A stretch of DNA of 63,999 bases, filler included, from Jimgerdemannia flammicorona (GCA_003990765.1; 3 parts of 3 records of this genome joined end to end with filler, not necessarily neighbours in it), one strand, 5' to 3'. Shown: positions 38 to 62,394, numbered from the whole stretch's first letter. The notes: a model not told the origin generated them from the letters alone. Numbers and translations are program-made.

Positions 38-749
38 TCCCTTGGACTGCCCTTTATTATTGATGTCTATAATTCTAATAATACAATGTCACCCCCAACC
101 TCAACCAATGCCCCATGGACCCAACCCTCCCCTCTTGACCTCTCTCTGCCCAAGCACTACCCAATTACCCACTACCTGAATCCTTCCACTACTCTTCTGG
201 AAGATATACTATACCAAACCCCTGCAGTTCCCCCTACCCAGCCCCCAACCTCACCATCAGCTATTCAAAATATCCAATAGCAACTATTCCCAATATACCA
301 CCTTGTCCCTAATCCCAACCTGCTGCCTCTCCTCAAAGACATGAACCCAATGCCCAGCTAACCCAACCTACATGGCCAAAGCCCAACTAAGTATAAGAGG
401 GTTGCTTTTTAGAGTAACCATTACATAGTTCTGGATGGGTTTTCTGGAAGTTCTGGATATTCTGGAAGACTGTTTTCTTATGGTCAAGATCAATTTTGTA
501 TGGAGTACGTCCTCTATACTTATTGATTTCAAGATCGGGTTGACATCTCAACCAAAGTCCTTTTTTTTGGACTAGTTCTGGATGTTCAGGATTTTTTGTA
601 TTTCAGGAAGTTCAAGAAACTAAGACCCGCTTAGTTGAACTGGCATATCACTGCAGACAATACCCAATTAGGAAATTTCATGACAGAGTTAGGAATGAGA
701 CCTAACAGGGAGCAGATTTACTTAAGAGTAGTTTGTGGGTTATTAAATA

Positions 750-1000
750 AGTTTATTTGCTATTCATGATATTGCTATACTAGGAGTAGTTGTGTAAAGG
801 GATATTGTGGGGAAGTATTCAGAAATGTTCGAGTCTGAGATTTTGAGGTCTGGGAGAGTGGGTATTTATATATACTAGTGAGGGGCTATCTGGACTATGC
901 TGAATATGGATGTAGCACTAAGTGTTTTGCTGAGTCGGAATGCAGTCACGTAGTACAAGTGTGATCTGACATGTCAAAAGATCATCTGACTGCTGAGTCA
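750..1000 (-). promoter_or_regulatory. Putative element promoter (TATAAATA) and poly(A) signal (AATAAA) of the family A LTR
   Basis: Minus-strand TATAAATA near 863-870, AATAAA near 752-757, TGAGTCA at 994-1000; repeated in the other LTRs; positions fit a U3/R/U5 layout. Confidence 0.5.
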
Positions 1001-1063
1001 GTTCACAGTCACATCATACAATACTAATCTAAGTATACTATGACTGCTAGACTATTCATGGGT

Positions 1064-2170
1064 TTAGGTGCTATCTGGGTAGTCCTCAATGACATCACCA
1101 TTGATTGCATCATCTCTGATGAAGTAGTCATCTAGGAAAAGTGGTTCGTGGATTACTTCTCCTTGTTCGCTGAGATAGTAATACATTGGGACTTTGTCTC
1201 CATCCCACAGAATAGCATCATCTGTCTCATAGGCTGGATAAGGTATTGGTGGATGAAGGATGGGTATATTGTCTTCACTTTCATTGGATTCACTGTCTAC
1301 ATACCTTCTATAGGTTACAGCACTATGAGTTACAGAATTATAGTAAGCTGGCAGCTGTGGTTTATGTTACTCGTACTCAGGTAGTGGAGTGGTTGGTTCG
1401 ATCTCGAGAGTTGTCTAGAGGTACAGGTTGTGTTCTCTGGTCTCTTCATTGTAGTTGAAGTAATCGGGGGTGAAGGCGGATTGGTATTCATACCAGTGGT
1501 CATTGTCCCAATAAGTCTCATATGTAGTTATGAACTGTTGTAAGTTCATCAGCAAGGTTGGCAGAGTGATCAGGGTTGGCAGAGATCCTTGGCTAGAGGT
1601 CATATCAGCATCAGAGGGATCATTGTCTTCTGCTTCGTCTTCATTGAAGTGGATTATATCATAGATGTCCTTCATGGCATATCCAACTTGAGGCATTTGC
1701 AGGATATGATCATTGGGGTGTGGGAAGGTTTTATCTGTGGTTTCGACATACTTGAGATACTCAAAATACTTGTGGTTAAGTTCTTGTATCATGTTGTCAA
1801 TTTGGCCATAGGACAGAGTAGTAACTATTTCGCTGGTGGTAACTTGGAGGCAGGGAATAATAGTACTATACTTGTAGAAGAGTTCTCGATGTTTGCAGGT
1901 AATGAGCTTCTGGTGTTGAGACATCTCGGTAATGTCTGTATCATGGTGGTGTTCGACCATGTCTTCCAGAAGGTGGCCGATCTGGTAGTAGCTTGAGATT
2001 TGTCCGATTCAGTGGGCCTCGCTAAGCATGTTCAGAGCATTCCAATGGACTTCCACGAAGTAGAGGGGTGTTAGGCTATGGATATTCATGAGGGGTAGAG
2101 GGAGTGTGGCTTGGTTGACAATGGCATTCCAAATGTCAGCACAGATATGGTTGTAGATCTCGGTGGTCAT
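1064..2170 (-). pseudogene. LTR(U3)-encoded ~368-aa accessory protein of family A, copy 1 (unknown function)
   Basis: Hand translation from ATG 2170 (MTTEIYNHICADIW...) to TAA 1064 (...IEDYPDST*): 1107 nt in one frame with three internal stops (TGA, TAG, TAA); includes track ORF 1415..1960. Confidence 0.85.
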
Positions 2171-2240
2171 GTTTGTGTGTTTGGAAGTTTGTAGTTGTTA
2201 TTTGTTTTGGTTCTCTAATTCAATGCGTCTCAGTGCTTGG

Positions 2241-2346
2241 TATATATGCATTTGGTCCTGATTGGTAAGATTCTGTTTGTGTAATTCTTGTGTTCTGTGA
2301 CTTCATATTGACTCAGCTTTGTGCACTGTGACTTCGGTTTGACTCA
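2241..2346 (-). promoter_or_regulatory. Putative promoter of the LTR-encoded ORF: two TGACTCA (AP-1/Gcn4-type) sites, CCAAT box, TATATA
   Basis: TGACTCA at 2309-2315 and 2340-2346; CCAAT (attgg 2261-2265); TATATA near 2241-2247, about 70 nt upstream of the ATG; present in all three LTR copies. Confidence 0.55.
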
Positions 2347-2427
2347 GCTTCGTAATTAAGCAGGTAATTTCCAGATTTGTTTGGAGGTCATGTAAGATTT
2401 CAGTGGTTTGGAGGTTGTGTGCTTACA

Positions 2428-5400: not shown

Positions 5401-6504
5401 ATCGAATATTTCATCGATTCTTGATAGTGGGCAACAGTTCTTAATGATCTATTTATTGAGATCGCGGTAGTCAATGCACATTCGCAGGTCTCCTCCTTTC
5501 TTGACAACAAATAGGACTGGTGTACCATAAGGTGATACACTGGGTCTGATGAATCCTTATTCTAAGAGTTCATCAATTTCCTTCTTGAGTGCATCAATTT
5601 CTCTTGGAGACATGTGGTAGATTGACTTGAAGGCTGGTTTGGTATCTGGGATGGTCTTGATAGCATGGTCTACTGCTTGTTTGGGAGGTAGGCCTTTTGG
5701 GAGCTTCTTTGGGAATATGTCTCGAAATTTCTGGAGTAATGGTCTGACACGACTGTCAACTTTGGAAAAATCTTCTTCAGAGTTCTCAGGTTCTCCTTTG
5801 GATGGGCGGATGGAGATGGCGAAGAGAGGGCATTTCTTGGTCAATTTCTTGAGTTGTAGCTTATTGATGTAAGTGATTTTTGGTCCAGGGTCACTAGAGT
5901 GAAGTGGGTCTTTTTCACCTTGTAGTTTGAAGTTGTGGCATCCTTTCTTGATGGTCAGAGAATGGTTTACCCAATCGATCATAGGGTTCTCTTATTTTAA
6001 CCATGGGGTCCCAAGGATGATTTCATTGTCAGGAAGTGGAACAATTTGGAGGATAACATGTACTCGGTAGTTGCCAATTCGGAGGGGTAGATTGCAGACT
6101 TCTTTGCTAATAATATGTGAGGTCTCATTGGCTGTAGCAACTGCTTGAGTTTGCTGTACTGGAGAGGTAAAGACCTTGAGTCTGTTGGCTGTCTCTTCAT
6201 TGATGAAGTTGCCTGAGGCACCACTGTCTATCATAATCTTGACAGGTGCTCGATTGACAAAAGCCTTAAGTGTGAGCAGTTTGTCTGATCCAATGGTGGT
6301 GATTTCGGTTGTAGGAGCCTTCCTTCTGTTGGTTCTTCTTTGAGCCAGTTCATTGACATAAGAGAAGAAATCATCAATCATTCGAGAAGAGTACATTCCA
6401 ATGCCATGGAGACATCGGCCACTTGGTACATATCCATCTTCGATTTTTTTGTAGAATTGTTCTTCTTTGTTCATGGTAGGTTAGGCTGGGGCCTTGTTGG
6501 ATGA

Positions 6505-6905
6505 GCCAAATCCTTTGGATCCTTGGATGGTAGGCAGTAATTCAGGGACTTCCTTGACTATCAGGGTTGACTTGATTTTTTCAAATAGGATCTGGGCGAT
6601 GCAGAAACCTATGGGAATCTTAAACAGTGTCTAACTATGGTTTCGGATGAGAACAATAATTTTGCCTGTGTAATCCTCATCAATGACTCCTCCTTCTACT
6701 GAGAGTCCTTTCAATGCTAGGCTGCTGCAACAGCATATTCTTCCAACATGTCCTTCAGGGATTTGGATACTAATTCCTGTGTAGATTTGTTTGACTTCTC
6801 AGTTGGAAACTATAGCTTCTTCAGCTGCATACAGGTCATATCCAGCTGCTTTTTGACTTCCTTTAGTTGGGGCCTTAGCCATTTGTCTTAACTTGACAAA
6901 GTCTA
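6505..6905 (-). pseudogene. dUTPase domain of A1, between the zinc knuckle and the protease
   Basis: KAPTKGSQKAAGYDLYAAE...TGISIQIPEGHVGRI...SSLALKGLSVEGGVIDEDYTGKI...IAQILF...GSKGFGSS covers the five trimeric dUTPase motifs. Confidence 0.93.
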
Positions 6906-8930: not shown

Positions 8931-8933
8931 AGT

Positions 8934-10960
8934 TGTAAGAGGGTTGCTTTTTAGGGTAACCGTTACGTAGTTCTGGATGGGTTTTCTGGAAGTTCTGGAT
9001 ATTCTGGAAGACCGTTTTCTTATGGTCAAGATCAATTTTATATGGAGTACATCCTCTATGCTTATTGATTTCAAGATCGGGTTGATGTCTCAACCAAAGT
9101 TCTTTTTTTTGGACTAGTTCTGGATGTTCAGGATTTTCTGTATTTCAGGAAGTTCAAGAAACTAAGACTAGCTTAGTTGAACTGGCATATTGCTGCAGAC
9201 AATACCCAATTAGGAAATTTCATGACAGGGTTAGGAATGGGACCTAACAGGGAGCAGATTTACTTAAGAGTAGTTTGTGGGTTATTAAATAGGTTTATTT
9301 GCTATTCGTGATATTGCTATACTAGGAGTAGTTGTGTAAAGGGATATTGTGGGGAAGTATTCAGGAATGTTCAAGTCTGAGATTCTGAGGTCTGGAAGAG
9401 TGGGTATTTATACTAGTGAGGAGCTATCTAGACTATGCTGAATATGGATATAGTACTAAGTGCTTTGCTGAGTTAGAATACAGTCACGTAGTATAAGTGT
9501 GATCTGATATGTCAAAAGATTGTCTGACTGCTGAGTCAGTTCACAGTCATGTTATACAATGCTAATCTAAGTATATTATGACTACTAGGCTATTTATGGG
9601 TTTAGATACTGTCTGGGTAGTCCTTGATGACATCACCATCAATTGCATTATCTCTGATGAAGTAGTTGTCTAGGAAAAGTGGTTCATGGATTACTTCTCC
9701 TTGTTCGCTGAGATAGTAATATATTGGGACTTTGTCTCCATCCCACAGGATAGCATCATCTGTCTCATAGGCTAGATAAGGTGTTGGTGGATGAAGGATG
9801 GGTGTATCATCTTTGCTTTCATTGGATTCACTGTCTGCGTACCTTCTATAGGTTACAGCACTATAAGTTGCAGGATTGTAGTAAGCTGGCGGCTGTGGTT
9901 CATGTTGCTTGTACTCAGGTGGTGGAGTGGTTGGTTCGATCTCAAGAGTTGTCTGGAGGTACAGGTTGTGTTCTCCGGTCTCTTCATTGTAGTTGAAGTA
10001 ATCGGGGGTGAAGGCGGGTTGGTATTCATGCCAGTGATCATTGTCCCAATAAGTCTCATATGTAGTTATGAACTATTGTAAGTTCATCAGCAAGGTTGGC
10101 ATAGTGATCAGGGTTGGCAGAGATCCTTGGCTAGAGGTCATGTCAGCATCAGAGGGATTGTTGTCTTCTACTTCGTCTTCATCGAAGTGGATTATATCAT
10201 AGATATCCTTTATGGCATATCCAACTTGAGGCATTTGCAGGATATGATCGTTGGGGTGTGGGAAGGTTCTGTCTGTGGTTTCGATGTACTCAAGGTACTT
10301 GTGGTTAAGTTCTTGTATCATGTTGTTAATTTGGTCATAGGACAGAGTAGCAACCATTTCGCTGGTGGTAACTCGGAGGCAGGGAATAATGGTACTGTAC
10401 TCATAGAAGAGTTCTCGATGTTTGCGGGTGATGAGCTTCTGGTGTTGAGACATCTCGGTAATGTCTGTATCATGGTGGTGTTCGACCATGTCTTCCAGAA
10501 GGTGGCTGATCTGATAGTAGCTTGAGATTTGTCTGATTTAGTGGACCTTGCTAAGCATGTTCAGAGCATTCCAATAGGCTTCTATGAAGTAGAGGGGTGC
10601 TAGGCTATAGATATTCATGAGGGGTAGAGGGGGTGTGGCTCGGTTGACAATGGCATTCCAAATGTCAGTGCAGATATGGTTGTAGATCTCAGTGGTCATA
10701 TTTGTATATTTGGAAGTTTATGGTTGTTATTTGTTTTAGTTCTCTGATTCAATGCATCTCGGTGCTTGGTACATATATATGCATTTGGTCCTGATTGGTA
10801 AGATTCCGTTTGTGTAATTCTTGTGTTCTGTGACTTCGTATTGACTCAGCTTTGTACACTGTGACTTCGGTTTGACTCAGCTTTGTGATCAAGCAGGTGA
10901 TTTCCAGATTTGTTCGGAGGTCATGTGAGATTTCAGTGGTTTGGAGGTTGTGTGCTTACA
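8934..10960 (-). repeat. 5' LTR of A1 (2027 bp)
   Basis: TGTAAG...CTTACA termini; followed on the minus strand by ACT and PBS TGGTAGCAGC. Confidence 0.96.
9602..10699 (-). pseudogene. LTR(U3)-encoded accessory protein, copy 2
   Basis: Same start and stop as copy 1; 1098 nt; includes track ORF 10073..10489; retains PPPEY and PPAY. Confidence 0.85.
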
Positions 10961-15208: not shown

Positions 15209-18200
15209 TGTAAGAGGGTTACTTTTTAGGGTGACTGTTACGTAGTTCTGGAAGGGTTTTCTGGATATTCTAGATGTTCTGGAAGACTGTTTTCTTATGG
15301 TCAAGATCAATTTCGTATGGAGTACATCCTCTACACTTATTGATTTCAAGATTGGGTTGACGTCTCAACCAAAGTCCTTTTTTGGACTAGTTCTGGATAT
15401 TCAGAATTTTCTGTATTTCAGGAAGTTCAAGAAACTAAGACCAGCTTAGTTGAATTGGCATATCGCTGCAGACAATACCCAATTAGGAAATTTCGTGACG
15501 GGGTTAGGAGTGGGACCTAACAGGGAGCGGATTTACTTAAGAGTGGTTTGTGGGTTATAGAATAGGTTTATTTGCTATTCATAATATTGCTATACTAGGA
15601 GTAGTTGTGTGAAGGGATATTGTGGGGAAGTGCTCAGGAGTTGTATTCGGATTGTTCAAGTCTGAGATTCTGAGGTCTGGGAGAGGGGGTATTTATACTA
15701 GTGAGGGGCTATCTGGACTATGCTGAATATAGATGTAGCACTAAGTACCTTGCTGAGTCGGAATGCAGTCACATAGTATAAGTGTGATCTGACATGTCAA
15801 GAGATCATCTGACTGCTGAGTCAGTTCACAGTCATGTCATACAAGGCTAATCTAACTATACTATGACTGCTAGGCTATTTATGGGTTTAGGTGCTGTCTG
15901 GGTAGTCTTCGATGACATCACCATCGATTGCATCATCTCTGATGAAGTAGTCATCTAGGAAGAGTGGTTCGCGGATTACTTCTCCTTGTTGGTTGAGGTA
16001 GTAATACATTGGGACTTCATCTCTATCCCATAGGATAGCATCGTCTGTCTCGTAGGCTGGATAAGGTGTTGGTGGGCGGAGAATGGGTGTGTTGTCTTTA
16101 CTTTTATCAGATTCACTGTCTGTATACCTTCTATAAGTTACAGTACTATGAGTTGTGGGGTTATAGTATGCTGGCAGCTGTTGTTCATGTTGCTCGTACT
16201 CAGGTGGTGGAGTGGTTGGTTCGATCTCGAGGGTTGTCTGAAGGTACAGGTTGTGTTCTCTGGTCTCTTCATTATAATTGAAGTAATCGGGGGTAAATGT
16301 GGGTTGGTATTTGTGCTAGTGGTCATTGTCCCAATAAGTCTCGTATGCAGTTATGAACTATTGTAAGTTCATCGGCAAGGTTGGCAGAGTGATCAGGGTT
16401 GGCAGAGATCCTTGGCTTGAGGTCATATCGGCATCAGAGGGATTATTGTCTTCTGCTTCATCTTCGTCAAAGTGGATTATATCATAGACGTCCTTTATGG
16501 CATATCCGACTTAAGGAATTTGTAGGATATGGTCATCAGGGTGCGGGAAGGTTCTATTTGTGGTTTCAACATACTCGAGGTACTTGTGATTGAGTTCTTG
16601 TATCATGTCATCGATTTGGCTGTAGGATAGGGTAGTAACCATTTCACTGGTAGTGACTCAGAGGCGGGAAATAAAGGTGTTGTACTCATAGAAGAGTTCT
16701 CGATGTTTGCGGGCGATGAGCTTCTGGTGTTGAGACATCTGGGTAATGTCTGTATCGTGGTGGTGTTCAACCATGTCTTCTAAGAGATGGCCAATCTGGT
16801 AGTAGCTTGATATTTGTCCAATCTAGTGGGCCTCATTAAGCATGTTCAGGACATTCCATCGGGCTTCCACGAAGTAGAGGGATGCTAGGCTATGGATATT
16901 CATGAGGGGCAGAGGGAGTATAGCTTGGTTGACAATGGCATTCCAAATGTCAGCACGGATATGGTTATAGATCTCAGTGGTCATGTTTGTATGTTTGGAA
17001 GTTGTAGTTGTTGTTTGTTTTGGTTTTCTGATTCAACGCATCTTGGTGCTCGGTATATATGCATTTGGTCCTGATTGGTAAGGTTCCGTTTGTGTAGATC
17101 TTGTGTTCTGTGACTTCGTATTGACTCAGCTTTGTACACTGTGACTTCGGTTTGACTCAGCTTCGTGATCAAGCAGGTGATTTCCAGATTTGTTCAGAGA
17201 TTGCGTGTAATTTCAGTGGCTTGGAGGTTGTGTGCTTACAACTCTCCCCTTCTTAGCTTTCGACATCCTCATCGGGGCCTTCTAATTTGTTCTATTGTTG
17301 TTACACCATTTGGAAGGTCAAAAGTCTGGTAAGGTCCATTTTCTCAGAAAGTAGCATACTCATAGTACAGTTGCCTAACACGTTGAATTCACACATTAAA
17401 GAGTCATGTGTTCAATGCCATATGCCGGAAGTGATTCTGACATCATTTACTGCTGGAGAATTTCCTCTAAGGAATCTTCTTAAATGTCTATGCCTTGTTT
17501 CCCACCAGTGGTACAGGGAGAATAGGCTTGCTTTCAGTTTTGCTATTTTTCCAGGAGTTCAGTATTCTTGTCTTGTTTTGCTGAGTTCTTGACTTGGTTC
17601 ATGATAGTTATAATGTTCAGGAGAGTAATATGTAGTATATATGGATAGGTACAGAGTATTTGGTTCTAGTTGTTCAAGGAATCATATTCCTGAACTAGAT
17701 CAGTAGCATTCTGGAGATTGGTCTTGGGTTCCCAGGTTGTATCGTGAATCGGGTAACCTTTCCATTTGACAAGGTACTCAGGAAGGTTCTTGTTACCATG
17801 TTTGTTGAGGATTTGTTCAACTTCGTATTCTTCTTGGTCATTAATGATGACAGGTATAGGTGGTTTGGTGGTTTGGTTTGGAAATAGCTTGTCATCATTG
17901 TCATTGTATCACTTGAGACGTTAAACATTAAAGACTGGGTGAATCTTAATGGTGTCTGGTAGCGCCAGTTTGTAGGAGGTTGGAGAGACTCATGTAATGA
18001 CTTCAAATGGTCCAATAAACTTGCTGTTCAGCTTTGTAGATGGTCTGTGCTTGAGGTTGTCAACTTGGTATTCTCTGATATCTAGTAGAACTTTTTCTCC
18101 AATGTCAAAGGTTTCTTCTCAGTGGTGTTGGTTAACATACTGTGACTGTTGTTCTTGAGCTTATGATAAATTCTCAATTGCGATCTGGCTTAGATTGCAC

Positions 18201-44507: not shown

Positions 44508-44761
44508 AGATCAGGGTATTTGTATAAGGGTCAGGGTCAAGGATTAGGTGGAAGGTCTGTTGTTTGCCACGTATAAAATAAGCTCGGAATTAGATAGATT
44601 AGAACGGAAGTGCATCCTGTTCGAGTGTACTTTCTTTATGCATAGTTCCTCATCAAACTGGAAAATCCAGGTTCTGGATCAATCAGCCATCTTACAGTCC
44701 GCGGATCACATTTTTGGCTTAAATTCAATAAATAGTCTGATGATCGCTGTGTGTTATGTAT

Positions 44762-45300
44762 TGTAACGTAGCGGACGTGTAACTTGGAACGTCGGATTTC
44801 TTTATCTTGTATTCTTGGTCTTTTTTTGACTCTTCAGAGTCCTTAGGGTGCAGGGGTGGGTGAGTTTGAAGTGTATCTGCCCACAGGCTTACTAGTTCTT
44901 TTGCCTTTTTACTTGAACTATTTTGATCTAAGGTTTATTCACTCTAGATATTAGGGATATTTGTACAAATTTACAGTAGCTAAGTTATGAGTTATTTGTC
45001 ACAATCCTCAACTTTATTGATAACATTGTTAGTAATATTGTTAAAGATAACTGCTAACTATAATTTATACTATATTATATTTAGAATCAGATTCAGATAC
45101 TATAATTAAATGTCTATCTTCTGATTCTTGTTTCTAATTCAGATCAACTGTTACAACTTCTTCTTGAATAGATGATCTTCTCTAAAATATCTATTCAAAC
45201 TCTTATGCTTCTATATCTTAAATGATCTTATACTATTCTATCTGGTTTTTTATATTTTCTTAGTACTATTTATTAGTAATTTAAAGTCTATTGAAGTTAT
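44762..45300 (-). mobile_element. Diverged family C-related LTR (44762-45155) with PPT and decayed adjacent internal sequence
   Basis: TGTAACG...TTACA; shares gggtgggtgagtttgaagtgtatctgcc..caggcttactagt and ttgaactattttgatct with the 55150-55625 LTR; followed by acttcttcttgaatagatg as at 55626. Confidence 0.8.
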
Positions 45301-45776
45301 ATCTTAGAGATATAATAAAGCCTGCTTATTATTTTAAAATAGCTTAAAAATATACCATTTAATAGTAATCTAACTACTAAAGATCTAGTATATAATAATC
45401 TAATAATTCTTCTTGATATTTAATTACTATTCAAAAATTTTATAATGATTCATTATAAGCTACTAAAATTTTCAATAAAAATGCTAACAGAAATTCCAAC
45501 AGAATATATAGAAAACTACTTTCTATATATTATTATATATTATATAGTACTAGAATCTATAAGTTAGACATTATTGTTATTAGCTATATTGATATGTTCA
45601 GTAAGTATATTCTTAGTAGTAAAATTGCTTATATATATATATATATCTGAGAGATTTCTTATAAGTGCTAGAACTTTATCTTTATTACTAATATAATCTA
45701 TAGATATATTGAGAAAATTTACTTAATTTACTAAGTTATTAACATAATTAGTATATTTATAGATATACTTCTTAGG

Positions 45777-47264: not shown

Positions 47265-49192
47265 GTGACTATCAACATAGATGGCAACAATCAAACTGAT
47301 GAGCGTACTAACCAGAGGGGTGACGGCACCTTTGGCTGGCAGCAAGTGGGGAGGAGGGGAGATGGTTTGGGAATGTCAGGGGCCTCATTGGCTAGCCAAG
47401 GTTCTGGTGGTGGTGGGAGGGGCAGGCTAAGACAGAGAGGAGGGGAGAGGTTGACCTTCACTGACAAGGTCAGAATGGGAAAGATGGCCTCAGGCCTTGA
47501 TGGTTGGCTGGGTCTGGGGACGATGTCGACAGCTGCTACTGGGGGACAGAGAGGTGTACCCAGGGGAGTCTCAGGTGGCAGGAGAGGAGCAGGAGTAGGG
47601 GCTGGAGATGTGACTGTTGATGGGGCTGTGACTGGGGATCTGGCAAAAAATCCAGATGTGATAGTGGTTAGCAATTCAGAACTGGGAGTAGGCACGAGGC
47701 CCAGAGACCTGGTAGATGGGGTGATGGGTATGGTGTCGGCCCTATTACTCAAGAAGTCGAGGTCAGAATTTGCAGTCACAATGTGCTTCCGGGGCTTAGT
47801 AGTGACGGTAAGGATGATTTTGGGGCTGGTGGTACAGAAGGCTAAGGGAGCAGCATCAGTGAAGTTTTTAAGAGGAAAGAAAGGGATTGAGGTGGGGTTT
47901 GAGGAGGAAGATGCCTTGTTGGCAGCCATGGAGAAGGGGATGATGGTTGGCGGAGTTGTGGTCCCTATGGCCCGGTGCATGTGCTGGGACCCTCAAGTGG
48001 TGCAGTTGATGGTGTTGGATCTTCCTACCATGTCAAAGGAGAGGACCAGAGAGTTGGTTGTAGAGGCAATCAAGGAGTATAGCGAGATTGTAGATATTAG
48101 GTTCAAGATCTGGGAGGGCACAGAGCTTAGAACTGGCAATGTCGATATCAGGGTGAGGCTGGCTGGGAAGGAGAATACAGAGAAGTCGAGGGACTGGCCA
48201 GTAATACTGAGGTGGGGTCTGGTGGAGTGTAAGGTCACAAGGGTGAAGGGGACCCAGGAGGAGGAGGAGGACCTGTTGGAGGCTCTGGAGGATCTGGAAG
48301 GGGCGGTTGTGAGGAGGAGATTGGCCTGGAGGGAGTTTGAAGCCAGGATGGTGGTGGGGGAGGTGGATGAGAAGAGGGTCCGGATGGAGAAGGGGGCCTG
48401 GGAGAAGATGCAGGAGAGGAGGATCCAGAAGGAGCTGTTGGCGAAGTTGGGTGGGGTAGGGCCAGTGGAAGCTCCGGGGAGGGAGTTGTAGGATTGCAGG
48501 AGAGCACCTGGGCTGAGGGGGGAGAGTTGGCCCAGGGTGGGGCTCGAATTGGAGTGGGGGAGGGGAGGGAGGGTAATTTGGAGGCAGATGCCGAAATGGG
48601 TGAGGGTACATATCCTCAGTATAGTGTTCCGGATGGAGCAGAGGGGGAGGAGGAGCTGATGGATATGCTGGATGAGGAGTGGGATGAGTCAGTGAGGAGG
48701 AGTGTGCTGGTGGACCCTGAGGTGGATGGGGGACAAATTGCTCAGGGGGTGGCAGAGACAGTGGATGAGGAGAAGTGGATGTGGAAGACCCTGGAAGGGG
48801 TAGCAGCTGAAGAGCTGGGGGGTGAGGACTTTAGGGTGATGGAGGAGAAGCATTGAGAGGAGATCCTATGGGAGGAGGAGGTGCCGAGGAAGATGAGGAA
48901 TGAGATTCTGGCTGTCCTCCTGGAGTTGGTTGAATATCAAGTTGATGATTAGCGAGAGGAGAAACTTAGGAGGATTGCGAGCAACAGGGTACTTTTCTTA
49001 TAGAACTTGAGGAAGGGACTGGAGAAGTGGTGCACAGTCTGCTTGGACTACCAGGTGGATATAGAGGAAGTGGATAGGGTGGAATGTTAGGAAATCTTGG
49101 GGGCACTGGATGCTCAGGATAATGCAGAGGGTGACTTGAAAGCTGAGCGGCGCTTGGATCTGGTGGGAGATGAGATGAGCATGGAATTATAG
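47265..49192 (+). pseudogene. LINE ORF1 (~640 codons: Gly-rich N-terminus, RRM-like core, acidic/coiled-coil C-terminus)
   Basis: Track ORFs 47265..48491 and 48494..48856 plus downstream homology to ORF1 of L1b/L1d; one frameshift and stops. Confidence 0.8.
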
Positions 49193-49223
49193 GTTGGGGT
49201 CTCTATTGCAACATTTCTTCAAT

Positions 49224-52200: not shown

Positions 52201-52920
52201 ATCTGTGGCCTGAAGTCTGGCAGAGGGTTGGAATTGGTGAGGAGTGGGATTGGAATGGACTCTGGCTTTGGAGCAAACAGGTGTGGCAGTGGCTGCCCCC
52301 CAAGTTCTGGGTGGTGTGGTGGCAGGTCCTACAGCGGAATGTGATGTTGAACTATTGGTCTGGATACTTGGTGAATGGTGGAGTTTTCGAGTACAAGGAT
52401 TGTTTCAATATTGGTCAGGAGGGAGAATTGATACAAATGCCTGAACATTGGCTTGGTGAATGTGAGGTTTTGGAGAAGTTTTGGAGATGTATTATGGACC
52501 AGGTAGGGCTGGGTGCCTTGGAGGGAGAGGGTGGGAGAAGATGGGGAGAGATTTGCTGGCAACTGGTGGGTAGGGTTGGAGATGAATGGCTGACCCTTGG
52601 TTGGGCTTTGGCTATATAGGTTGGGTTGGCTGGGCATTGGGTTCATGTCTTTGAGAAAGGACATTGGGTCAGGGTTGGTGACAAGGTGGCCCATTGGGAG
52701 TAGTTGCTGTTGGACATTTTGAATAGCTGGTAGCAAGGTTGGGAGATGGGTGGGGGGAACCGCAGGAGTCTGGTGCAGTGTATCTCTCAGAAGAGTGGTG
52801 GGAGGATTTGGGTAGTGGGTAATTGGGTGGTACTCAGGTAGGGGGAGGTTGAGGGGGGGGGGTTGGGCCCCCGGGGCATTAGTTGAGGGTGGGAGTGACA
52901 TTGTATTGTTAATACTATAG
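49224..52920 (+). pseudogene. LINE ORF2 (APE endonuclease, RT, C-terminal Cys/His motif)
   Basis: MNSTTRIFSLNVNGL...DLFLLQDVH, GGNFN, WSDH, PIMLLDMDHKLV, LDQEKAYDRV, PQGDPLSP, FADN, YYLGIY, GGLGLVD, EHWLGEC; many stops. Confidence 0.92.
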
Positions 52921-52950
52921 ACTTCGGTAATAAAGGACAGTCTAAGAGAC

Positions 52951-52984
<34 letters not shown>

Positions 52985-53129: not shown

Positions 53130-55130
53130 TAATTTTGAAGATATACAGATTACTATATAGACTATCATATATGGCATTCATCTCTATACTATGTATCTAC
53201 TATTAATTAATTGTTTCAGTTATCAGCCTTGTTTCTATAAACTATTAATATTAAACAATAGATGTCTGGAAAAACACATCATTGAGTTAATAGCCAGGTT
53301 GCTTCTTAGTTGAGAGATAATATTATAAGAATTAATCACTAAATATACTAAACAAACCACTATATAAATAGACCACTGTATGGATATCCAAAGAAAACAA
53401 CATATATATAGACTATTGTATAGACTATTACTACCTAATTTTGAAGAAGATAAATGGACCACTATATGGATACTTAAAGAAAATAATATATAGATTACTA
53501 TATATATATCAAAAGAAAATAACAAATAGACTGCTATATGGACCACTACCTAAAGAAGATAAATAAACCACTATATAGACCATCACTCAATTTTTGAAGA
53601 TATTGTTCATCTCTATATCATCTGCTATTAATTAGTTATTCTGATTATTAGCCTTGTTTCTGTGAACTGTCAGTATTGAATAATAGATACTCTGCAAAGG
53701 ACTATATTATTGAGTTAATAACCAGATTGCTCCTTAGTTTGAAGAACAATATTATAAGAATTAATTGCTGAAAAATGCTGAAAAAACTACTATACAAATA
53801 AACTACTATATAGACCACTATCTAAAGAAGACAAATAAACTACTGTATAGACTATTATACAATTTTTGAAGATATTGTTTATCTCTATACTATCTACTAT
53901 TAATTAGTTATTCTAGTTGTCAGCCTTATTTCTGTAAACCATTAGTATTGAACAATAGATGCTCTGCAAAGGACTGTATTATTGAGTTAATAGCCAGATC
54001 ACTCCTTAGTTCAAGAGACAATATTACAAAATTAATCATCAAAAAAATAAAATGAACCACTATATAAATAGACTGCTATATAGACTATTGCTATCTAACT
54101 TTTGAAGATAAGAATGCTGCCTGTTGTATACCAAACTACTCTACTTTTGACTATAGAATTAAAAGACATCATATATAAACTGTTATAAATAGACTACTAT
54201 GAAGAATAAAAGATACTATCATCTAACTTTTAATGATATATGAACTATCACTCAAGTTAATTATTTGAAGAATACTGTCTATCATATACTGAACTGCTCT
54301 ATTTTTGATTATAGAATTAAAAATATTATATACAAACTACCTGAGATAATATATGAATAGACTGTTATAGAGAATAAAAGATGCTATCATCTAACTTTTG
54401 ATGACATATGAACTATCATCTAAGTTAATTATTTGAAGAATGTCACCCAACTTTTGAAAATAAAAATACTGCTCATCATATACCAAACTGCTCTACTTTT
54501 AACTGTAGAATTAAAAGACATTATATATAAACTATCTGAGATGATATACAAATAAACTACTATGGAGAATTAAAAATATCATATTAAACTATCTGAGACA
54601 ACATACATATGAATAGACTATCATAGAGAATTAAAAACATTATATACAAACTACCCAAGATGTCATATAAATAGACTGTTATAGAAAATTAAAAACATTA
54701 TATATAAACTATCTAAGATAATATACAAATAGACTACTATAGAGAATTAAAAATGTTATATATAAACTGTCTGAGTAAAAAATGCTATCTGACTTTTGAA
54801 GATACTGTCATCTGACTTTTGATAATATATATACAAATAGACTATCATGAAGAATAGAATATATAAACTGTCATCTAACTTTTAATGATATATAAATACC
54901 TTCTGACATATAAATGCTATCCTACTTTTGAAGATACAAACTACTGCCCAATATATAAACAGACCAATGCTATTATCTGACTTTTGAAGATAAACTACTA
55001 TCTGATTTTTGAACTTGATTTTGAAGATATCATCATCTAACTTTTGATGACATATATACTACTACATATCTAAACTAATTATTTGAAGACTTTTTGGGAT
55101 CTCAAAAAATATTCTGACAATTGCTTAGAT
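53130..55130 (+). repeat. Degenerate hierarchical tandem-repeat array (internal region of element D)
   Basis: ~60-bp units (actatctgagatgatatacaaatagactactatagagaattaaaaa...) at 54530-54770; ~260-bp units at 53170-54100; recurrent ctaacttttgaagata motif. Confidence 0.75.
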
Positions 55131-55674
55131 ATATTATAAATATGTCCATTATAACGTAATGGATGCTTACTCTTGAAAGTATGTCAGATTTCTGTATCTT
55201 GAAAACTTGACCATTCTGACTCTCGCAGAGTCTCTTGAAGTTGTAGGGGAGGGTGGGTGAGTTTGAAGTGTATCTGCCTGCAGGCTTACTAGTCCTTTGC
55301 TATCTCTTTGCTTTGAACTATTTTGATCTGAGGTTTATTCACTCAAAGATACTGGGTTATTTATACAAGTTTGCTAGCTATGAGAGGATAGCTGAGTAAT
55401 AAATGAGTCATTTGGACTTTGTCAAAACATTTGAACAATGTCTAAATACTATACTAAATCGGGATATTTGATTTGGATAATGTCTAAAAGTTTAGACAAT
55501 GTCTAAGAATTTAGACAATGTCAAAATCGAGGACTGCTAACTATAAGGCTATACTACTTTGAGACTGAGTACGATCAAGTGTCTATTCTCTATTTCCTTC
55601 TTCCAAATTTGGCTGTACCATCACAACTTCCTCCTGAATAGATGGTCTCATCCCTGAGGCATCTATTTAAACTC

Positions 55675-56124
55675 TCAGGCTTCAACCATCTGTATGGTCT
55701 TGTACTGTGCAATTTGCTGTATGACTGTTTCCTAATGATGTCTTCTCACTTTCTTGAAGTCGGTGGGGGTTACTCCTCTCAGGTGGTCTATTGCTGGTTT
55801 ATCTTCTCAGAATAACTTATGGATCCTTTTGGCAATAGTGATCTGTGAGTGGGAGAGTTGGCACTTGGCAATCCAGTCCTCTTTGGTCTTTGCTGGATCC
55901 TGATTGAGCACCTGTCCAAGCTTGAAGTACTCTTGGAATTCTACCCGATATTGATAGGCTCTAAAGTGCGAGATCTGAGAGAGATGAGTCTGTACAATAC
56001 TCTGAATATCCTCATAGTATGCCTCTATGGTCAGAGGCTCAGTGGTGTGCTATTGTCTTTTGATGGCTCTTTGGGTAGCACTAGTGATCTTGAGTGCCAT
56101 CACAGTACTTTTGTTACTGGCCAT
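55675..56124 (-). pseudogene. Family C extra ORF3 (~150 aa) downstream of integrase, unknown function
   Basis: ATG 56124 overlaps the integrase stop; MASNKSTVMALKITSATQRAIKRQ*HTTEPLTIEAYYEDIQ...EYFKLGQVL...LSHSQITIAKRIHKLF*EDKPAIDHLRGVTPTDF...; three internal stops; end uncertain; aligns with the family A LTR protein. Confidence 0.72.
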
Positions 56125-57307
56125 GATATTTCTTGAGTCAGTTTCGGTGAATGGTGGTGGGGATTATTGTGCCTGAGGGTTTTCGTAGCCAAAAGGTGGT
56201 CTCTTTTATATCTTGTACAAGGTAAGGTCCTTCCTACTTGGGCTCTAGTTTTTGTGACCATGAAGCTTCTACCATATTCCGATACATTAAGACCTTGTCT
56301 CCTATCTTGATAATCTCCAAGGGCTTGTGGGTCTTTTCCACATTCCTCCATTGTAGTGTCTGTGCCTTGGTTATGTAATCCTCAGCCTTCTTTCTGATTT
56401 GGTGTAGTCTCCATATTTCTATGTCCACATGTTTCCATACAGCATCTCCATTGGATAATAGAGTTTCTTGAGAACATTCTTCTTCAAACAGCATTTCTCG
56501 AGGGGTAAAGTGGGTGCTTTGTGATCGGATATCCTGGAGAGCAGATAATGCTATTGGCAGATAGTGATCCCAGTTCTCGTAGTTATCACAGATCTTGACG
56601 ATAATATTCTTGAGGGTTTTGTTGGTCCTTTTTACTTGTCCATTTCCTTGGAGGTGATAGGCTGTGGTCCGAATGTGCTGGATCTTGTACTTCTTGTAGA
56701 GAACCTCAAAGAGCTGGTTCATGAATTCTGTTCCTCTATCTGTAGTTACTTGTATTGGGGTCTTGAACCAGCAGATGATTTCCTTGTGGAAGAAATTGGC
56801 GATTGACTGTGCATTGGCTTCCTTGAGGGGTTCTGCTTCTATCCACTTCATAAAAAGGTCTATGATGACAATAATATATCGGTTACCAGTCAGGGTCAAG
56901 GGTAGAGGGCCAATTACATCTATTGCTATATGGGCAAATGGTACTGGTTCTATGTGTGCTGATTCTGGGGCCTGATTCCATTGGTCTTGTTTCTGTTTCT
57001 GGCATTTGTCACATGTTTTGACAAATTGTCTGATATCTTCCTCCATCCCTGGCCACCATATTGTTCTTCTTGTCTTGTCATATGTATTCATTCCTCCTAG
57101 ATGGCCAAGTTCATGTACTGATTTCATTACTTACTCCTTCTTGTATTCTGGTATGACCAGTAGTTTTCCTTTCTTCAGTATTTCTCCATCAGTTTCGAAT
57201 TATTTCCATGTCCTATTGATAATTATTTGTGTCTATTCTTCCAGATGTTGGGGCATCTTTTGCTGTCCCAGGTATGTAATAATTCCATAGTAGAGCTCCT
57301 TATTCAT
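56114..57307 (-). pseudogene. Family C integrase (HHCC, DDE, GPY), apparently with its own ATG
   Basis: MNKELYYGIITYL... is in frame with track ORF 56234..57127 (HELGHLG...CDKC, IAIDVIGP, TDRGTEF, EGPY); stop at 56114. Confidence 0.88.
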
Positions 57308-60300
57308 AATTGATTTGTTGGTTGGAGGTAGTTTGAGGTGTCTGTGAGAGAGCATCTGCATTGAAATTTGTTCTTCCAGGGTGGTGTACAATGGTTACAT
57401 CATAGGCTTGTAACTTCATTATCTATCTGGTATAGATTCCCTTGGGTTGTTCAGTTGTCAGTAGCCAGGTGAGAGCTGAGTGGTCCATCTGGATGGTGAA
57501 GTATCTTCCAGCCAGATAGTAGTGGAACTTTTCCACAGCCCAGATGACTGCAAGGCATTCCAACTTGTAAGACTTGTATTCTTTTTCAGCCCCTCAGGTT
57601 CCGTGGCTAAGATATGTAATGATATACTCTTTTTTGTCTTCTTTTTGAGCTAGGACTGCTCCTAGTCCTTGTGCACTTACATCTGTCTGAAGGATAAATT
57701 CTTGGGTCCAATTGGGTCATCTGAGAATGGGTGCCTGAGTTAGTCTGATCTTGAGTTCATCAAATGCTTTTTGTTGTCTGCCAGTCCACTGGAACTTGGT
57801 ATCCTTCTTGTTGAGTTCATAGATTGGACCTGTGATGTTGGAGAATCCTCTAATGAATCTGTAATAGTAGGAGGCAAGTCCTATGAAGGCTTGGGCTTCT
57901 GTGACAGTAGTGGGCCTTGGGTATGCTACTACCACTTGTATTTTGAGGGGGTCTGTGTGTGTTCCATCTCAATTGATAATATGGCCAAGATAGGAGATCT
58001 CGATTTCTGCAAACTTGCACTTCTTGGGTTTGATATAAAGGCCATGTTGTCTTAGTCTCTCCATTATCTGCTGTATGTGCTACAGATGTTCCTCAGGTGT
58101 CTTACTGTAGATGATTACATCATTGACATAGACCATCATCCATCTTCCCATATCATAGTGGAAGATTTTGTTCATCATTCGCTGAAAGCTTGCTGGTGCA
58201 TTGCACATTCTGAATGGCATTCATAGGTAGATGTAGGTTCCATCTGGGGTGATGAAGGCTGACTTTTCACTTACCACCTCTGTGAGTCCGATTTGGTGAA
58301 ATCCTGAGTATAAGTCCAAGGTACTGTAGTACTCTGCTTCATCTCCCAGTGTTATAAGAATGTCACTGATGAGCAGCAGTAGTTGGCGATCCTTCTTAGT
58401 AACTGCATTAAGCTTTCTGTAGTCAATACAGAGCTTTGGGGCAAATTCTCCAGATTTGCTTCCTTTTTTTGGGGCTAATACAACTAGTGAAGACCAGGGG
58501 CTACTGGCTTCTTTGATGATGCCGGCTTCTTCCATCTGCTTGATTTCTTCTCTGAGCCATTCTTGGTAAGCTGGCGGGACAGGTCTTGCTTTCTGATAAA
58601 TTGGTTTGGTCTCCAGTATCTACCTCATGATAGTAGTGTGGGGTCTTTTCCTTGATATTCTTGAAATCTGTGGCAAGGACATCCTCAAATTTGTGAAGTA
58701 TTTTCTTGAGTTCCTCCTTGAGTGGAAATTCATCTCCAATGGTGTAACTGTGCTTGCTCATGTTTTCCTCCTTCTTATGCTTGAGTTTGGTGATCTTGGT
58801 GCTAGTGAATACTCCTCTTCCTATGGATCTGAATCCTTTCTTTCCTCTTTTCATTTCCTCCAGATTCTTGACTTCTATGATCCTTGGCTGTATGATTGGG
58901 AAGATCAACATCTGTGCCAATCAGTCCTTCTTCTTGACTGAGAATGGAATTGTAGGATTGTGGTTCCTAGCAATGAGTAGAATTTCTCCAATATAGTCTG
59001 AATCAATGACTCCTCCTTCGATTGTGATTTCACTTCTAGCCAGGCTGCTTCTTGTTTTGAGAATCCTGACATGATCCTTTGGGATAGTCATCTCTAGTCC
59101 AGTTGCGAGTAGAGTGGTTGTCTGAGATTTGAGTACAGTTTCTTCTACTGTAGCGATGTCCATTCTGGCTACATTTTCTGACTTGTATTCTGGCAAGACT
59201 GCATCAGGGTCAATCTTTCGAATCTTGATCTTGATTTCTTCTTCATCATCACTGTCCTCCAGGAGGGCTGGTGGTTCATTGTCTTCCTCCTTCTCTTCTT
59301 CTCTGATCTGTTTTTCGAGAGCTTTCTGCCTTCTTTCCTGGTAGATCTTCTTGGTTCCGATGGTGCACTGGTAGCAATCATTGATATACTCCATACAGTA
59401 CATCTTGATTCTATGAGGACAGACTCCTTGTGGGGCATAGCCTTCTGTGATCTTCTTATACCATTCTTCCTCACTCATCCATCCAACTTTCTTCTTCTTT
59501 GGGGTAGTCACCATATAAGCTTCCTCTTGCTCACTCTCTTCTTCCTCCATATTGGGCAGGACTCCTTTGTTGACATTGATGGGAATTCGTATCTTCTGTC
59601 CCCAGTAGGTGATCTGCATCTTCTGAGCATTGAGATCAATTACCACCTTGGCTTTGTGAAGCCATTGATTGCTGATGAGGATATCATAGTTGGTGGTATT
59701 GGTTACGATTATATCTACTGGGATTGTTGCTCCTCCAATCTTGATGGGAACATCTCGGATCTTTCCCAGAGGTGTGACTCTTGTGCCATCAGCTGTGACA
59801 AATACTAGCTTAGTTGCTTCTTCCACATCCCAACCTAGACAGTCTGCTGCCTTCTTACTGAGGAGACATCCTCCTGCTCCCATATCAATGATGGCTTCAA
59901 AGGTTCTATCTTCGATTTGGTATGTTGCATAAGCAGAGGTTTTGCAATTATCCTCACTTTCTTCTCCTGAGTCCTCTTGAACATTATTGGCCTCAGTTAT
60001 CTTCCATCCTTGTTCCTTGGTTGTTTCGGCAAGTCCAAACCTCATTTGCTGTCTGAATGTTGGGATTTCTGCGAACTGATCAAAGGTTGTATTGACCTTT
60101 TGTTGACTGAGATCCTTGAAGATATCATACTTAAAGGTCTTGGTCTTGCAAAGCTTCTTTTCTTTTTCTCCTTCACTGGCTAGAGTAGTTCCTCAGATGA
60201 TATCTTGAACTGCTTGCTCCAGCTTGATATCTTGGCCCATCTCTTTAGCTTGCAGTTTCCATCCGCTTTTTCACTGGGTTCTTCTTGAGTCTTCCTGGCA

Positions 60301-61279
60301 GTCTCTTGTAGAGTTCTTTGCAAGCATCCTTCTTGGTGGTCTGAGCAGGATAAGCCTTCCATTCCTCTTCATCAGATTCTCTGATTTCTTCAAAGGTGAT
60401 TGTATTGGCCTGCTCCTTGTTTTGTGTGGCATTGCTTGGTTGAGCCTTGCATTTGGTTTCACTCATACATTCATAGGAGTAGTGGTCTTCTTCTCCACAG
60501 CTATAGTAGGTACCTTTCTTCTTGTCTGAGGTGGTGGCAAACTTCTGAACAGGGCAGCGATCTCTTCCTCGGATTTTCTTTACCATATCTCCCAGGTGGG
60601 CAGTCATTTTAGCAAATCTTTTGACGAGTTCCTCCATAGGGTCACTGTTCTTTTGCTGCTCTGTAGCTTTTGGCTGAGGTGTGTTTCAATTAATCATCAT
60701 GGTGGGAATCATACTGGTTGCCTTGAGTGCCTCAATTCTGACTCCTGTAACTCTCTCCATTGTATGGTCTTGTGGGTGTCTGGCTATCCAGTATCGCTGA
60801 GCATAGGTGACCTTCTGTGGCAGATCCAGAATCACTAGTGATGAGCAGATGGCTATGGCTATTTCTGGATGGACTCCTTTCATAAAGGTTGCTTCAGCTA
60901 CTTGATCTCGGATAGCAGCAGCATAATCTGCAAGAATTATCTGATATCGAATTCTGGTATAGAATGTATTTGAATTCTCGCTCATTCCTTGGTATGTTGT
61001 GTTGAGCTAATCCTTCAGGGCTTGCTTGATCTCATCTGTGTAATATGTATTTCAGAGCCAGGTCTTCTGTGCTATCAGTATGGCATCAGCATCATTTCCT
61101 GCATAGGTTGCAGCTATGAATGCTGCTCTGGCAGGGCCTCATAGGCTGAAGGGCATGAGGGCTACTTGCTGTGCTGCTGTCAGAGTCCTTACAGCAGCAT
61201 ACTGCTCGAAATCATCAATGAAGGTAATGATTGATTCATCTGAGGTATATCCATAGAATACTGGCAGTCTCATATCCAT
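57300..61279 (-). pseudogene. Family C gag-ZnK / protease-dUTPase-RT-RNase H
   Basis: YYSCGEEDHYSYEC knuckle, AIIDMGA (DTG decayed), RSSLARSEITIEGGVIDSDYIGE, LCIDYRKLN, YVND, AFIGLASYY, NADALS. Confidence 0.92.
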
Positions 61280-62394
61280 CTTATCTGGATATTAGGGCTT
61301 GGTTTACATATATGTTTGTTCGGATAGTAGTAGTTGTTTATTGTTCAGCTTAAAAGTGAGGAATTCATCTTGAATTACCAGCCAATGGGCACCAAGTTGT
61401 AATGTAGCAGATGCTTACTCTTGAAAGTATGTCAGATTTCTGTATCTTGAAAACTTGACCATTCTGACTCTTGCAGAGTCTCTTGAAGTTGTAGGAGAGG
61501 GTGGGTGAGTTTGAAGTATATCTGCCTACAGGCTTACTAGTTCCTTTACTATCTCTTTGCTTTGAACTATTTTGATCTAAGATTTATTCACTCGAAGATA
61601 CTGGGTTATTTATATAAGTTTGCTAGCTATGAGAGAGTGGCTAAGTAATAAATGAGTCATTTGGACTTTGTCGAAACATTTGGACAATGTCTAAATGCTA
61701 TACTAAATCGGGATGTTTGATTTGGATAATGTCTAAAAGTTTAGACAATGTCTAAGAATTTAGACAATGTTGAAATCGAGAACTGCTAACTATAAGGCTA
61801 TACTACTTTGGGACTAGGTGCGATCAAGTGTCTATTCTCTATTTCCTTCTTCCAAATTTGGCTGTACCATCACACCATATAAGGGAAACAAATATATAAA
61901 CATTACAATGTAAGAATTTGAATAGGTATTTTTGTATCAAAAATAATCTATTCAGAGAGAAGATATGATATATAGTATGAAATAAAAACAAGAATCAGAA
62001 GAATAGATATTTAATTATAGTATCTGAATATGATTTTCTGATTTATTATAGTGTAAAAATTATCTTTACTATAAATACTACATCTAAAACATTATTAGTG
62101 AAACTCTTGTTACTTTTATAAATTTTAGATAGAATTTTATATGAGATTCTACCTGAGATACAGATGGAATTCTGCTGGAAATTTTATATAAAAAGACTTG
62201 ATACTTAGCTATATGTTTAGTAGCAGAATTAGCATATAAATCTATATAAATAACCCAGTATTTTAGAGTAAATAAAGCTCAGTAGAATCAGTTTAACTTA
62301 GTTAAAAAAGTCTTCTTTACATATCTTTCCTCTCTCTTTCACATAAAATCCAGAATCTACTATACATATACAATTACATATCTATTATATTACA

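Follow-up and report, generated by a model that had tools for sequence, protein, structure and literature searches.

In a 63,999-nucleotide stretch of DNA from Jimgerdemannia flammicorona (GCA_003990765.1; three parts of three records of this genome joined end to end with filler, hereafter the window), a decayed open reading frame (ORF) lying directly after the integrase of a Ty3/Gypsy element, here called family C, is an inactivated copy of an accessory gene that is conserved in dUTPase-bearing Ty3/Gypsy retrotransposons. The encoded protein, ORF3, belongs to a new, unnamed family of accessory proteins, of a general kind (non-Env ORF3 proteins) that is already known. A second Gypsy family in the window, family A, carries within its long terminal repeats (LTRs) an ORF whose first ~135 residues are very probably true, if distant, homologues of C ORF3. 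A shared accessory domain had been proposed from a reading of the sequence by eye (the original prediction), and profiles that contain neither A nor C sequences find the domain in both families above decoys.

The C ORF3 gene reads on the minus strand from an ATG at 56124 to a natural stop at 55663-55665; the original prediction had placed the feature at 55675-56124, with the right start and a lower bound about 12 nt short. An intact database protein of 153 residues, P0004, is 74% identical to it over 153/153 residues. Four internal stops interrupt the frame, at codons 25 (TAG), 106 (TGA), 131 (TAG) and 150 (TGA), positions at which P0004 has W, R, W and W. The motif YFKLGQVL is found at codon 66, the core LSHSQITIAKRIHKLF*EDKPAIDHLRGVT at codons 90-119 and IQQI at codon 135. 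The pol frame closes with a GPY/F-type module, no chromodomain being found in it, and ends at 56114-56116; the ORF3 ATG sits 8-10 nt upstream of this stop in a different frame, so that the two overlap by 11 nt.

The family A ORF starts 257-262 nt inside the LTR, ~685 nt past the pol stop, and occupies positions 257-1364 of the 2025-2034-nt repeat. It is found in the three LTR copies of the window, two from element A1 and one from element A2 (Table 1), and the homologous domain corresponds to its first ~135 codons (1766-2170, 10295-10699 and 16580-16984). YYQI at codon 61, MSQHQK at codon 83 and IQEL at codon 128 are kept in 3/3 copies. The motifs YYQIGHLL and YFKLGQVL, the core and IQEL/IQQI are thus present on the minus strand in A and C as had been described, and their spacings are also as given before (14 and 16 residues ahead of the core, 15 and 15 after it). 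The reported 11 identities over the 30-residue core hold for the composite A sequence on which they were counted, while the real A copies match C at 8, 10 and 10 positions. Element A1 spans 394-10960 and is inserted into a copy of a long interspersed nuclear element (LINE), two halves of which flank it together with a 5-bp duplication, CTTAG; the LTR ends of A1 are fixed by these interrupted flanks and this duplication. The location of the domain described before is borne out: it occupies the env position in C and lies within the LTR in A.

A purine tract directly precedes the family A LTR. Downstream of the ORF, a strong TATAAATA at ~1544-1554 and AATAAA at ~1662-1671 of the LTR are kept in 3/3 copies, and it is this downstream placement that would assign the ORF to the U3 region. 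Judged by these motifs, its position upstream of a putative LTR promoter and poly(A) signal would make it a U3-embedded ORF of the same class as sag of mouse mammary tumour virus (MMTV). A second TATA-like motif occurs at LTR offset 182 in 3/3 copies (window ~2246, 10779 and 17059), 75-80 nt upstream of the ORF ATG, and could be a dedicated promoter of the LTR gene.

Relatives of ORF3 were found first by comparing C ORF3, with X at its stops, with a public protein collection, which gave six close relatives, P0004 among them. In an exhaustive search with a profile, six of 1.84 billion representatives matched at E (expect value) <=0.001, namely two close relatives, two distant ones (P0012 and P0013) and two tandem-repeat proteins, P0010 (22 matched stretches) and P0011 (six stretches), which were judged spurious. 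With these as seeds, 26 proteins at E<=0.01 were obtained among 639 candidates. These 26 relatives, of ~150-170 residues, form three subfamilies, the P0004, P0022 and P0013 groups. The first search made with the A ORF found a single relative, P0003, which covers the acidic C-terminal half only and not the domain.

Taken by itself, the pairwise alignment of A and C is marginal and leaves homology undecided. Smith-Waterman scores of the A copies against C were 42, 54 and 55 against a shuffle mean of 32 (standard deviation 5.3), corresponding to z values of 1.9-4.3, and the observed scores were reached by 110, 5 and 7 per 2000 shuffles. The shuffling check named in the original prediction thus had a marginal outcome, and significance is found only at the profile level. 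Profiles made from database proteins were scanned against six frames of the window in 858 overlapping tiles, with stops read as X. A 17-sequence profile without any A sequence gave 157 bits for C ORF3 and 19.3-24.1 bits for the A copies (E 1.3e-6 to 4e-5 over 858 tiles), spanning profile positions 1-144; shuffled tiles scored at most 7.0 bits (8580 tiles) and reversed tiles at most 3.1 bits (858 tiles). A 14-sequence profile with neither A-type nor C-type members gave 52.1 bits for C ORF3 and 24.7, 24.0 and 22.1 bits for the A copies (E 8e-7 to 5e-6). In all six frames it finds only C ORF3 and the three A LTR ORFs, no other match among the 858 tiles being better than E 0.04 except for overlapping tiles. 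An hhalign comparison of the three A copies with the 21-sequence family covered 129 columns at E 8.5e-5. Two results count against the homology: the direct similarity is weak, both in the pairwise z values and in the hhalign probability of only 60%, and a C-type-only profile scores A at a non-significant E of 0.21. Because the C-only profile fails to reach A, the link between the two needs the intermediate relatives.

Linkage of ORF3 to Gypsy elements is also seen outside the window. A metagenome scan yielded three loci, L001, L002 and L003. L001, a contig of 7944 nt, has a terminal repeat of 99 nt; in this contig gag, a CCHC-protease-dUTPase-reverse transcriptase-RNase H block, integrase and ORF3 follow in that order, ORF3 beginning 56 nt ahead of the integrase stop in another frame. 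L002 contains an integrase end with a GPY/F module and then ORF3. L003 starts inside ORF3 and hence does not enter the count, so that linkage is found in 2/2 testable loci of the three. In C, L001 and L002, ORF3 directly follows the integrase gene of a dUTPase-bearing Ty3/Gypsy element and overlaps it, whereas in A the ORF lies inside the LTR. Matches in sequencing runs comprised five rows from three studies, soil or root metagenomes among them, with a share of at most 0.20 each. Comparison of the L001-L003 ORF3 sequences gave proportions of synonymous differences (pS) of 0.71-0.85, which are saturated, against nonsynonymous proportions (pN) of 0.23-0.31 in 3/3 pairs; in the single pair where dS, the synonymous rate, was computable, the ratio of nonsynonymous to synonymous rates (dN/dS) was 0.18. 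On this evidence from sequence comparison, we are highly confident that ORF3 is a conserved accessory gene of Gypsy elements under selection.

Differences within LTR pairs are transitions in 140/142 cases for A1 and 29/29 for C, at divergences of 7.0% and 6.1%, and the commonest context is C/T before A, a signature resembling the hypermutation of repeat-induced point mutation (RIP), which also speaks for a fungal host. Dating of the insertions from LTR divergence was dropped, as nearly exclusive transitions reflect hypermutation and not clock-like decay. Every internal stop in the ORFs is one or two transitions away from a W, Q or R codon. Codon 54 of the A ORF reads TGA, TAA and TAG in the three copies, a combination that requires a TGG ancestor and independent G-to-A changes. 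The A and C ORFs of the window were thus probably intact at the time of insertion, C ORF3 having apparently been inactivated by RIP-like C-to-T and G-to-A transitions. Single in-frame stops also occur in L001 ORF3 (6397-6897; at a K/I position after KGI) and in L002 ORF3 (132-635; at the W of the terminal DEWDV), indicating the same kind of decay outside the window.

The domain had been called uncharacterised, and it is: the family matches nothing named in Pfam or among the solved and predicted folds searched. Pfam gave no meaningful match for the C ORF, the A ORF (its full length included), P0003 or 21/21 family members, the best sub-threshold matches being to TBK1_ULD (0.016, in 6/21 members) and RAMP (0.14). 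Among the PHROGs, the best match of the 21 members was an unnamed family (E 0.0083, 3/21), and the best E in a profile search of PDB sequences was 0.17. Foldseek searches of PDB with both structural models, and of BFVD, gave no match at E<=0.001. The ESM Atlas returned no usable match for P0022; its matches for P0004 (0.92-0.95) were confined to unnamed clusters from bacteria, archaea or phages and amount to leads at most. Scans of IMG/VR with P0022-type and C-type alignments produced 22 and 37 pattern matches and no relatives, and among the papers listed by literature searches none describes this protein family. Weak fold matches to DUF3102 proteins were seen in BFVD (probability 0.57-0.66, E 1.3-2.0), and Pfam gave no match to helix-turn-helix families of the ParB/SopB/VirB or DUF3102 type. 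Two PDB entries, 2q5z and 2q73, both titled 'Hypothetical protein', were weak profile matches (E 0.19 and 0.24). We take these to be MazG-type, that is, all-alpha nucleoside triphosphate pyrophosphohydrolases; the family has R, L and F in the aligned columns where those chains have E and D.

The original prediction had also held that ORF3 is not Env-like, and this was upheld. The maximum Kyte-Doolittle mean over 19 residues was 0.17-1.14 in 5/5 proteins scanned, so that there is no membrane segment, and for that reason ORF3 is not an Env; as compared with an Env, the ORF3 protein is also just 153-167 residues long, with an all-helical model. The best AlphaFold2 model, made with 21 sequences, has a predicted local distance difference test score (pLDDT) of 86.1 and a predicted template modelling score of 0.78. 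It consists of an N-terminal helix, a long helix at residues 40-75, a pair at 81-88 and 92-105, some short helices and a C-terminal one. The most conserved motif, IA-x-R-x-Y/H-x-L-F with an invariant Arg, lies on the pair, which in the model looks helix-turn-helix-like. A homodimer was predicted with a score of 0.47 (0.47, 0.46 and 0.48 in separate runs), the best of three controls reaching 0.23; the long helices run antiparallel, the runs share at least 67% of contacts and the partner pLDDT is at least 65. The mark used for homodimers was reached by 21/30 solved homodimers and 0/23 solved single chains in a microbial calibration, and by 17/29 and 0/30 in a eukaryotic one. The modelling thus supports an antiparallel homodimer.

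An acidic, aromatic tail ends the proteins of all three subfamilies and of A. In P0022 it reads EGEYPPFIDFG...ELDEWDL and carries a net charge of -13 over 34 residues (134-167), while that of the A ORF reaches -36 over ~230 residues (136-365). The idea of an LC3-interacting or PDZ-type C-terminal motif in the tail was dropped because the pattern did not fit.

The modelled dimer, the helix-turn-helix-like pair and the acidic aromatic tail are the grounds on which a trans-acting regulator is favoured: ORF3 protein would act in trans as a dimeric regulator of the expression of its own element, and the first choice would be an LTR transactivator in which a nucleic-acid-binding dimer is joined to an acidic, activation-like tail. 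Foamy viruses have Tas/Bel1, which binds DNA, has an acidic activation domain and drives the promoters of its own element. A transactivator-type role for ORF3 is a tentative proposal, the likeliest of the roles considered but more probably wrong than right. Several points tell against the explanation. With seven close sequences AlphaFold reached a pLDDT of only 59, and the other four models from 21 sequences scored low (55-72). The charge of the core domain is close to neutral, which is atypical of strong nucleic-acid binders, and all copies in the window are dead. The explanation as a whole, in which well-supported identities are combined with a function deduced from models and layout, is held with slightly better than even confidence. 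In its fullest form, a previously unrecognised dimeric transactivator-like family of soil-fungal Ty3/Gypsy elements whose gene moved into U3 in family A, we consider it improbable.

A different role, which we regard as rather unlikely, is that of an RNA-handling cofactor of the CERV or Rev type, which would bind the element's unspliced RNA inside the nucleus and help to export or package it, and would not activate transcription. CERV of Cer1 is needed for export of genomic RNA and, to judge by the available part of that report, is, among non-Env ORFs in env position of Ty3/Gypsy elements, the only one whose function has been studied (PMC10309623). ORF3 overlaps the pol end in another frame (by 11 nt in C and 56 nt in L001), an arrangement that suggests a separate, probably spliced ORF3 mRNA, as for cerv, and a dimer or multimer is modelled here too. 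On the other side, no RNA-binding motif of the arginine-rich or zinc-finger kind was seen, the core has a near-neutral charge, and an acidic, aromatic tail is not known as a feature of export adaptors.

With about the same small likelihood, ORF3 might be an adaptor to chromatin or a host factor, using the tail for tethering of the pre-integration complex or for anti-silencing. As would fit a host-interaction surface, the tail is the most variable part of the protein (10-25 residues in the C type, 34 in the P0022 type and ~230 in A), and family C lacks the chromodomain that A has and could need another targeting device. Yet family A carries both a chromodomain and the ORF, which is accordingly no simple substitute for the former, and no known peptide motif was identified in the tail.

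As for the entry of the gene into the LTR, the order gag-pol-ORF-R of the genomic RNA would be the same in A and C, the difference being that the polypurine tract lies before the ORF in A (AGAAGGGGAGAG) and after it in C (GGAGGAAG). In family A the tract, and hence the U3 boundary, would have shifted upstream of the gene. A new plus-strand primer site upstream of the ORF would put the gene into the LTR in one step, and reverse transcription would then copy it, as part of U3, into both LTRs. Such a boundary shift, the simplest explanation of the apparent relocation, is the route that we consider reasonably probable, against which it must be weighed that the promoter, poly(A) and polypurine assignments are made by motif only.

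The descent of ORF3 appears to have been vertical. Between C and L001, identity is 41% in reverse transcriptase, 45% in integrase and 25% in ORF3; between A and L001 it is 35% in reverse transcriptase and 28% in integrase; and between A and C it is 33%, 26% and, in the ORF3 domain (hhalign), 16%. Since ORF3 divergence tracks that of pol, vertical descent is favoured over a swap, and the suggestion in the original prediction that the domain was exchanged across lineages is disfavoured. It is doubtful, and somewhat less likely than either alternative role considered above, that a 3' module was swapped laterally between unrelated Gypsy lineages by recombination of co-packaged RNA, with no common ORF3-bearing ancestor. 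A and C do differ in chromodomain, LTR size and the side of the protease on which the dUTPase lies, and in bdelloid rotifers ORF3 types are common to unrelated LTR lineages (PMC5408684). A recent swap would, however, leave ORF3 more alike than pol, and both lineages also share the dUTPase and a Cys-rich motif. The dUTPase lies before the protease in A and after it in C, confirming the difference in domain order that had been described; it indicates that modules move in these lineages, and the apparent shuffling, which makes an exchange of ORF3 conceivable, is to be set against vertical descent. The Cys-rich motif, at residues 20-55 of A2 pol (within 19280-21349), is 53% identical over 36 residues to a part of the protease-dUTPase interval of C. 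It adjoins the protease on different sides of the dUTPase in A and C and could be a small module that binds zinc and moves together with the dUTPase.

The least likely reading is that A and C, as two helical ORFs of low information content, resemble each other by chance and that the A LTR ORF is unrelated: the weak direct statistics, the failure of the C-only profile and the non-independence of the three A copies as tests would fit it, yet 22-25 bits were obtained over the full domain length with a profile lacking both A and C, the motifs come in the same order, YYQIG is identical in A and P0022-type proteins, and neither the decoys nor any other tile came near.

There are several known systems with which ORF3 can be compared. 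Among them are the non-Env ORF3s of the bdelloid rotifer elements Juno, Vesta and TelKA (Rodriguez, Kenefick and Arkhipova, 2017, PMC5408684). Like family C and L001, these are Ty3/Gypsy-like elements with a dUTPase between protease and reverse transcriptase, a GPY/F integrase end, no chromodomain, and a non-envelope third ORF after pol, of a type that recurs across retroelement lineages (PMC5408684). The rotifer ORF3s described there differ in being enzymes (GDSL esterase, DEDDy exonuclease) or fusion glycoproteins (PMC5408684), whereas the present ORF3 is small and helical, shows no enzyme motif and matches no Pfam family, and one of its two carriers is a chromovirus with the ORF inside the LTR. 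CERV of Cer1 in Caenorhabditis elegans is likewise a lineage-restricted non-Env protein in env position of a Ty3/Gypsy element, and acts in the nucleus on the element's own RNA (PMC10309623); by analogy it is the best functional precedent for an env-position ORF3. CERV differs in its 517 residues, its five-exon spliced mRNA sharing gag exons, its Cys-rich loop and its G-protein-like domain, and the two are compared here by description alone, no shared motif being apparent in the available part of that account (PMC10309623). Fungal Gypsy elements, including the PosPlaTy3 families, also have a dUTPase at varying positions, in some between protease and reverse transcriptase, and an additional ORF to which no function is assigned occurs in some of them (Novikova, Smyshlyaev and Blinov, 2010, PMC2864245). 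This 'add. ORF' is likewise compared by description alone, as the available main text names no sequence or family for it (PMC2864245). Expansions of Ty3 elements rich in dUTPase are described for Entomophthorales, and Gypsy clades for truffles.

The LTR-embedded A variant of the family is unusual. It resembles certain vertebrate retroviruses in having a 3' accessory gene partly or wholly in U3. MMTV sag and the U3-overlapping nef of human immunodeficiency virus (HIV) are accessory genes in U3 and so are duplicated in both LTRs. MMTV, HIV and foamy virus differ from the present elements in being vertebrate retroviruses, and they are likened to them by general layout and domains alone. As compared with the retroviral U3 ORFs, the A ORF takes up 1.1 kb, about half of a 2-kb chromovirus LTR.

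The window as a whole is filled with nested transposable elements, and every feature treated here is on the minus strand (Table 1). Family A is a chromovirus on account of its Pfam Chromo match, and the difference in chromodomain between the two families is as had been described. Its dUTPase-like segment is 35.6% identical to the corresponding part of L001 pol (E 5e-15). Family C is a Ty3/Gypsy element enclosed by the LTR pair 55149-55625 and 61397-61874, both members of which have a TATA-like motif at 259-261 and AATAAA at 287.

Table 1. Features of the families A and C in the window. Bits are scores with the 17-sequence profile, which contains no A sequence.
Feature	Position	Strand	Basis or remark
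A1 3' LTR, 2034 nt	394..2427	-	Repeat comparison, junctions
A LTR ORF in A1 3' LTR, 369 codons, 3 internal stops	1064..2170	-	24.1 bits
Family A polypurine tract AGAAGGGGAGAG	2428-2446	-	Directly before A1 3' LTR
Family A protease	5923-6366	-	dUTPase-like segment lies upstream
Family A dUTPase-like segment, upstream of protease	6499..6894	-	tblastn, L001 pol residues 708-838
A1 5' LTR, 2025 nt	8936..10960	-	Repeat comparison, junctions
A LTR ORF in A1 5' LTR, 366 codons, 2 internal stops	9602..10699	-	19.3 bits
A2 3' LTR, 2030 nt	15211..17240	-	Repeat comparison, junctions
A LTR ORF in A2 3' LTR, 366 codons, 5 internal stops	15887..16984	-	23.7 bits
Family A chromodomain, end of pol	17669..17854	-	Pfam Chromo, E 3.4e-17
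Possible fourth, heavily decayed ORF3 remnant of a C-like element	45253..45411	-	Profile matches
Family C 3' LTR	55149..55625	-	93.7% identity over 478 nt to 61397-61874
Family C purine run GGAGGAAG	~55626-55640	-	Immediately precedes 3' LTR
Family C ORF3, 153 codons and natural stop, decayed accessory gene	55663..56124	-	P0004 match
Family C integrase, GPY/F-type end	56114..57307	-	Pfam Integrase_H2C2 and rve; frame reading
Family C gag (zinc knuckle), protease, dUTPase, reverse transcriptase, RNase H, in that order	57504..61267	-	Pfam; tblastn with L001 gag and pol
Family C 5' LTR	61397..61874	-	Pair of 55149-55625

The ends of the two family C LTRs differ, CG closing the 3' LTR and CA the 5' LTR, and the flanks read TTATATGG on the 5' side and TTATAATGG on the 3' side (window 55130-55165 and 61860-61895). 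Target duplications of 5 bp in A and 4 bp in C had been claimed; the former is CTTAG, while a clean 4-bp duplication of C was not confirmed. Beyond the C 5' LTR, the sequence at 61966-62327 is 87% identical to 367 nt at 46836-47202, which suggests that family C is placed within a repeated context. The possible fourth ORF3 stretch, which is very AT-rich, was matched by profiles of six sequences (E 2.7e-4), of C type only (0.011) and of 17 sequences (0.07), and lies just upstream of an LTR-like piece at 44761-44982 with 77-79% identity to the C LTR. Together, 44761-44982, 45253-45411 and 46836-47202 appear to be what is left of a second C-like element. Fragments of Gypsy integrase and RNase H, also decayed, lie in low-GC stretches at 27168-27927 and 40185-40628 (minus strand), and the six-frame profile scan gave no ORF3-like signal beside either.

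A LINE-like element is present twice, the parts at 31-391 and 10960-15208 matching adjoining parts of the copy at 48351-52956. The split copy is interrupted by A1 and abutted by A2, and a third fragment, 41594-42800, matches 51475-52681. Four runs of exactly 44 N (21352-21395, 21408-21451, 42802-42845 and 42858-42901) form two pairs 12 nt apart, one within A2 pol and the other at the end of the LINE fragment, and look like masking and not assembly gaps.

Complex retroviruses are set apart from simple LTR retrotransposons by their accessory genes. A role is known for very few non-Env ORF3s, CERV being the one studied example in the literature available here (PMC10309623). The present family adds a small protein that is under purifying selection, occurs in two deeply diverged Gypsy lineages and lies outside Pfam and the structure libraries. 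If the boundary shift is true, family A is a concrete example of a displaced polypurine tract pulling a gene into the LTR. On the fullest reading given above, which we consider improbable, each A LTR, solo LTRs among them, would carry the whole gene together with a TATA-like motif 76 nt ahead of its ATG, and defective relatives might be provided with the factor in trans from dispersed LTRs; an LTR retrotransposon would in this way make its terminal repeat a mobile gene. Should the factor drive or protect expression of the elements, it would bear on the inflation of fungal genomes by Gypsy elements.

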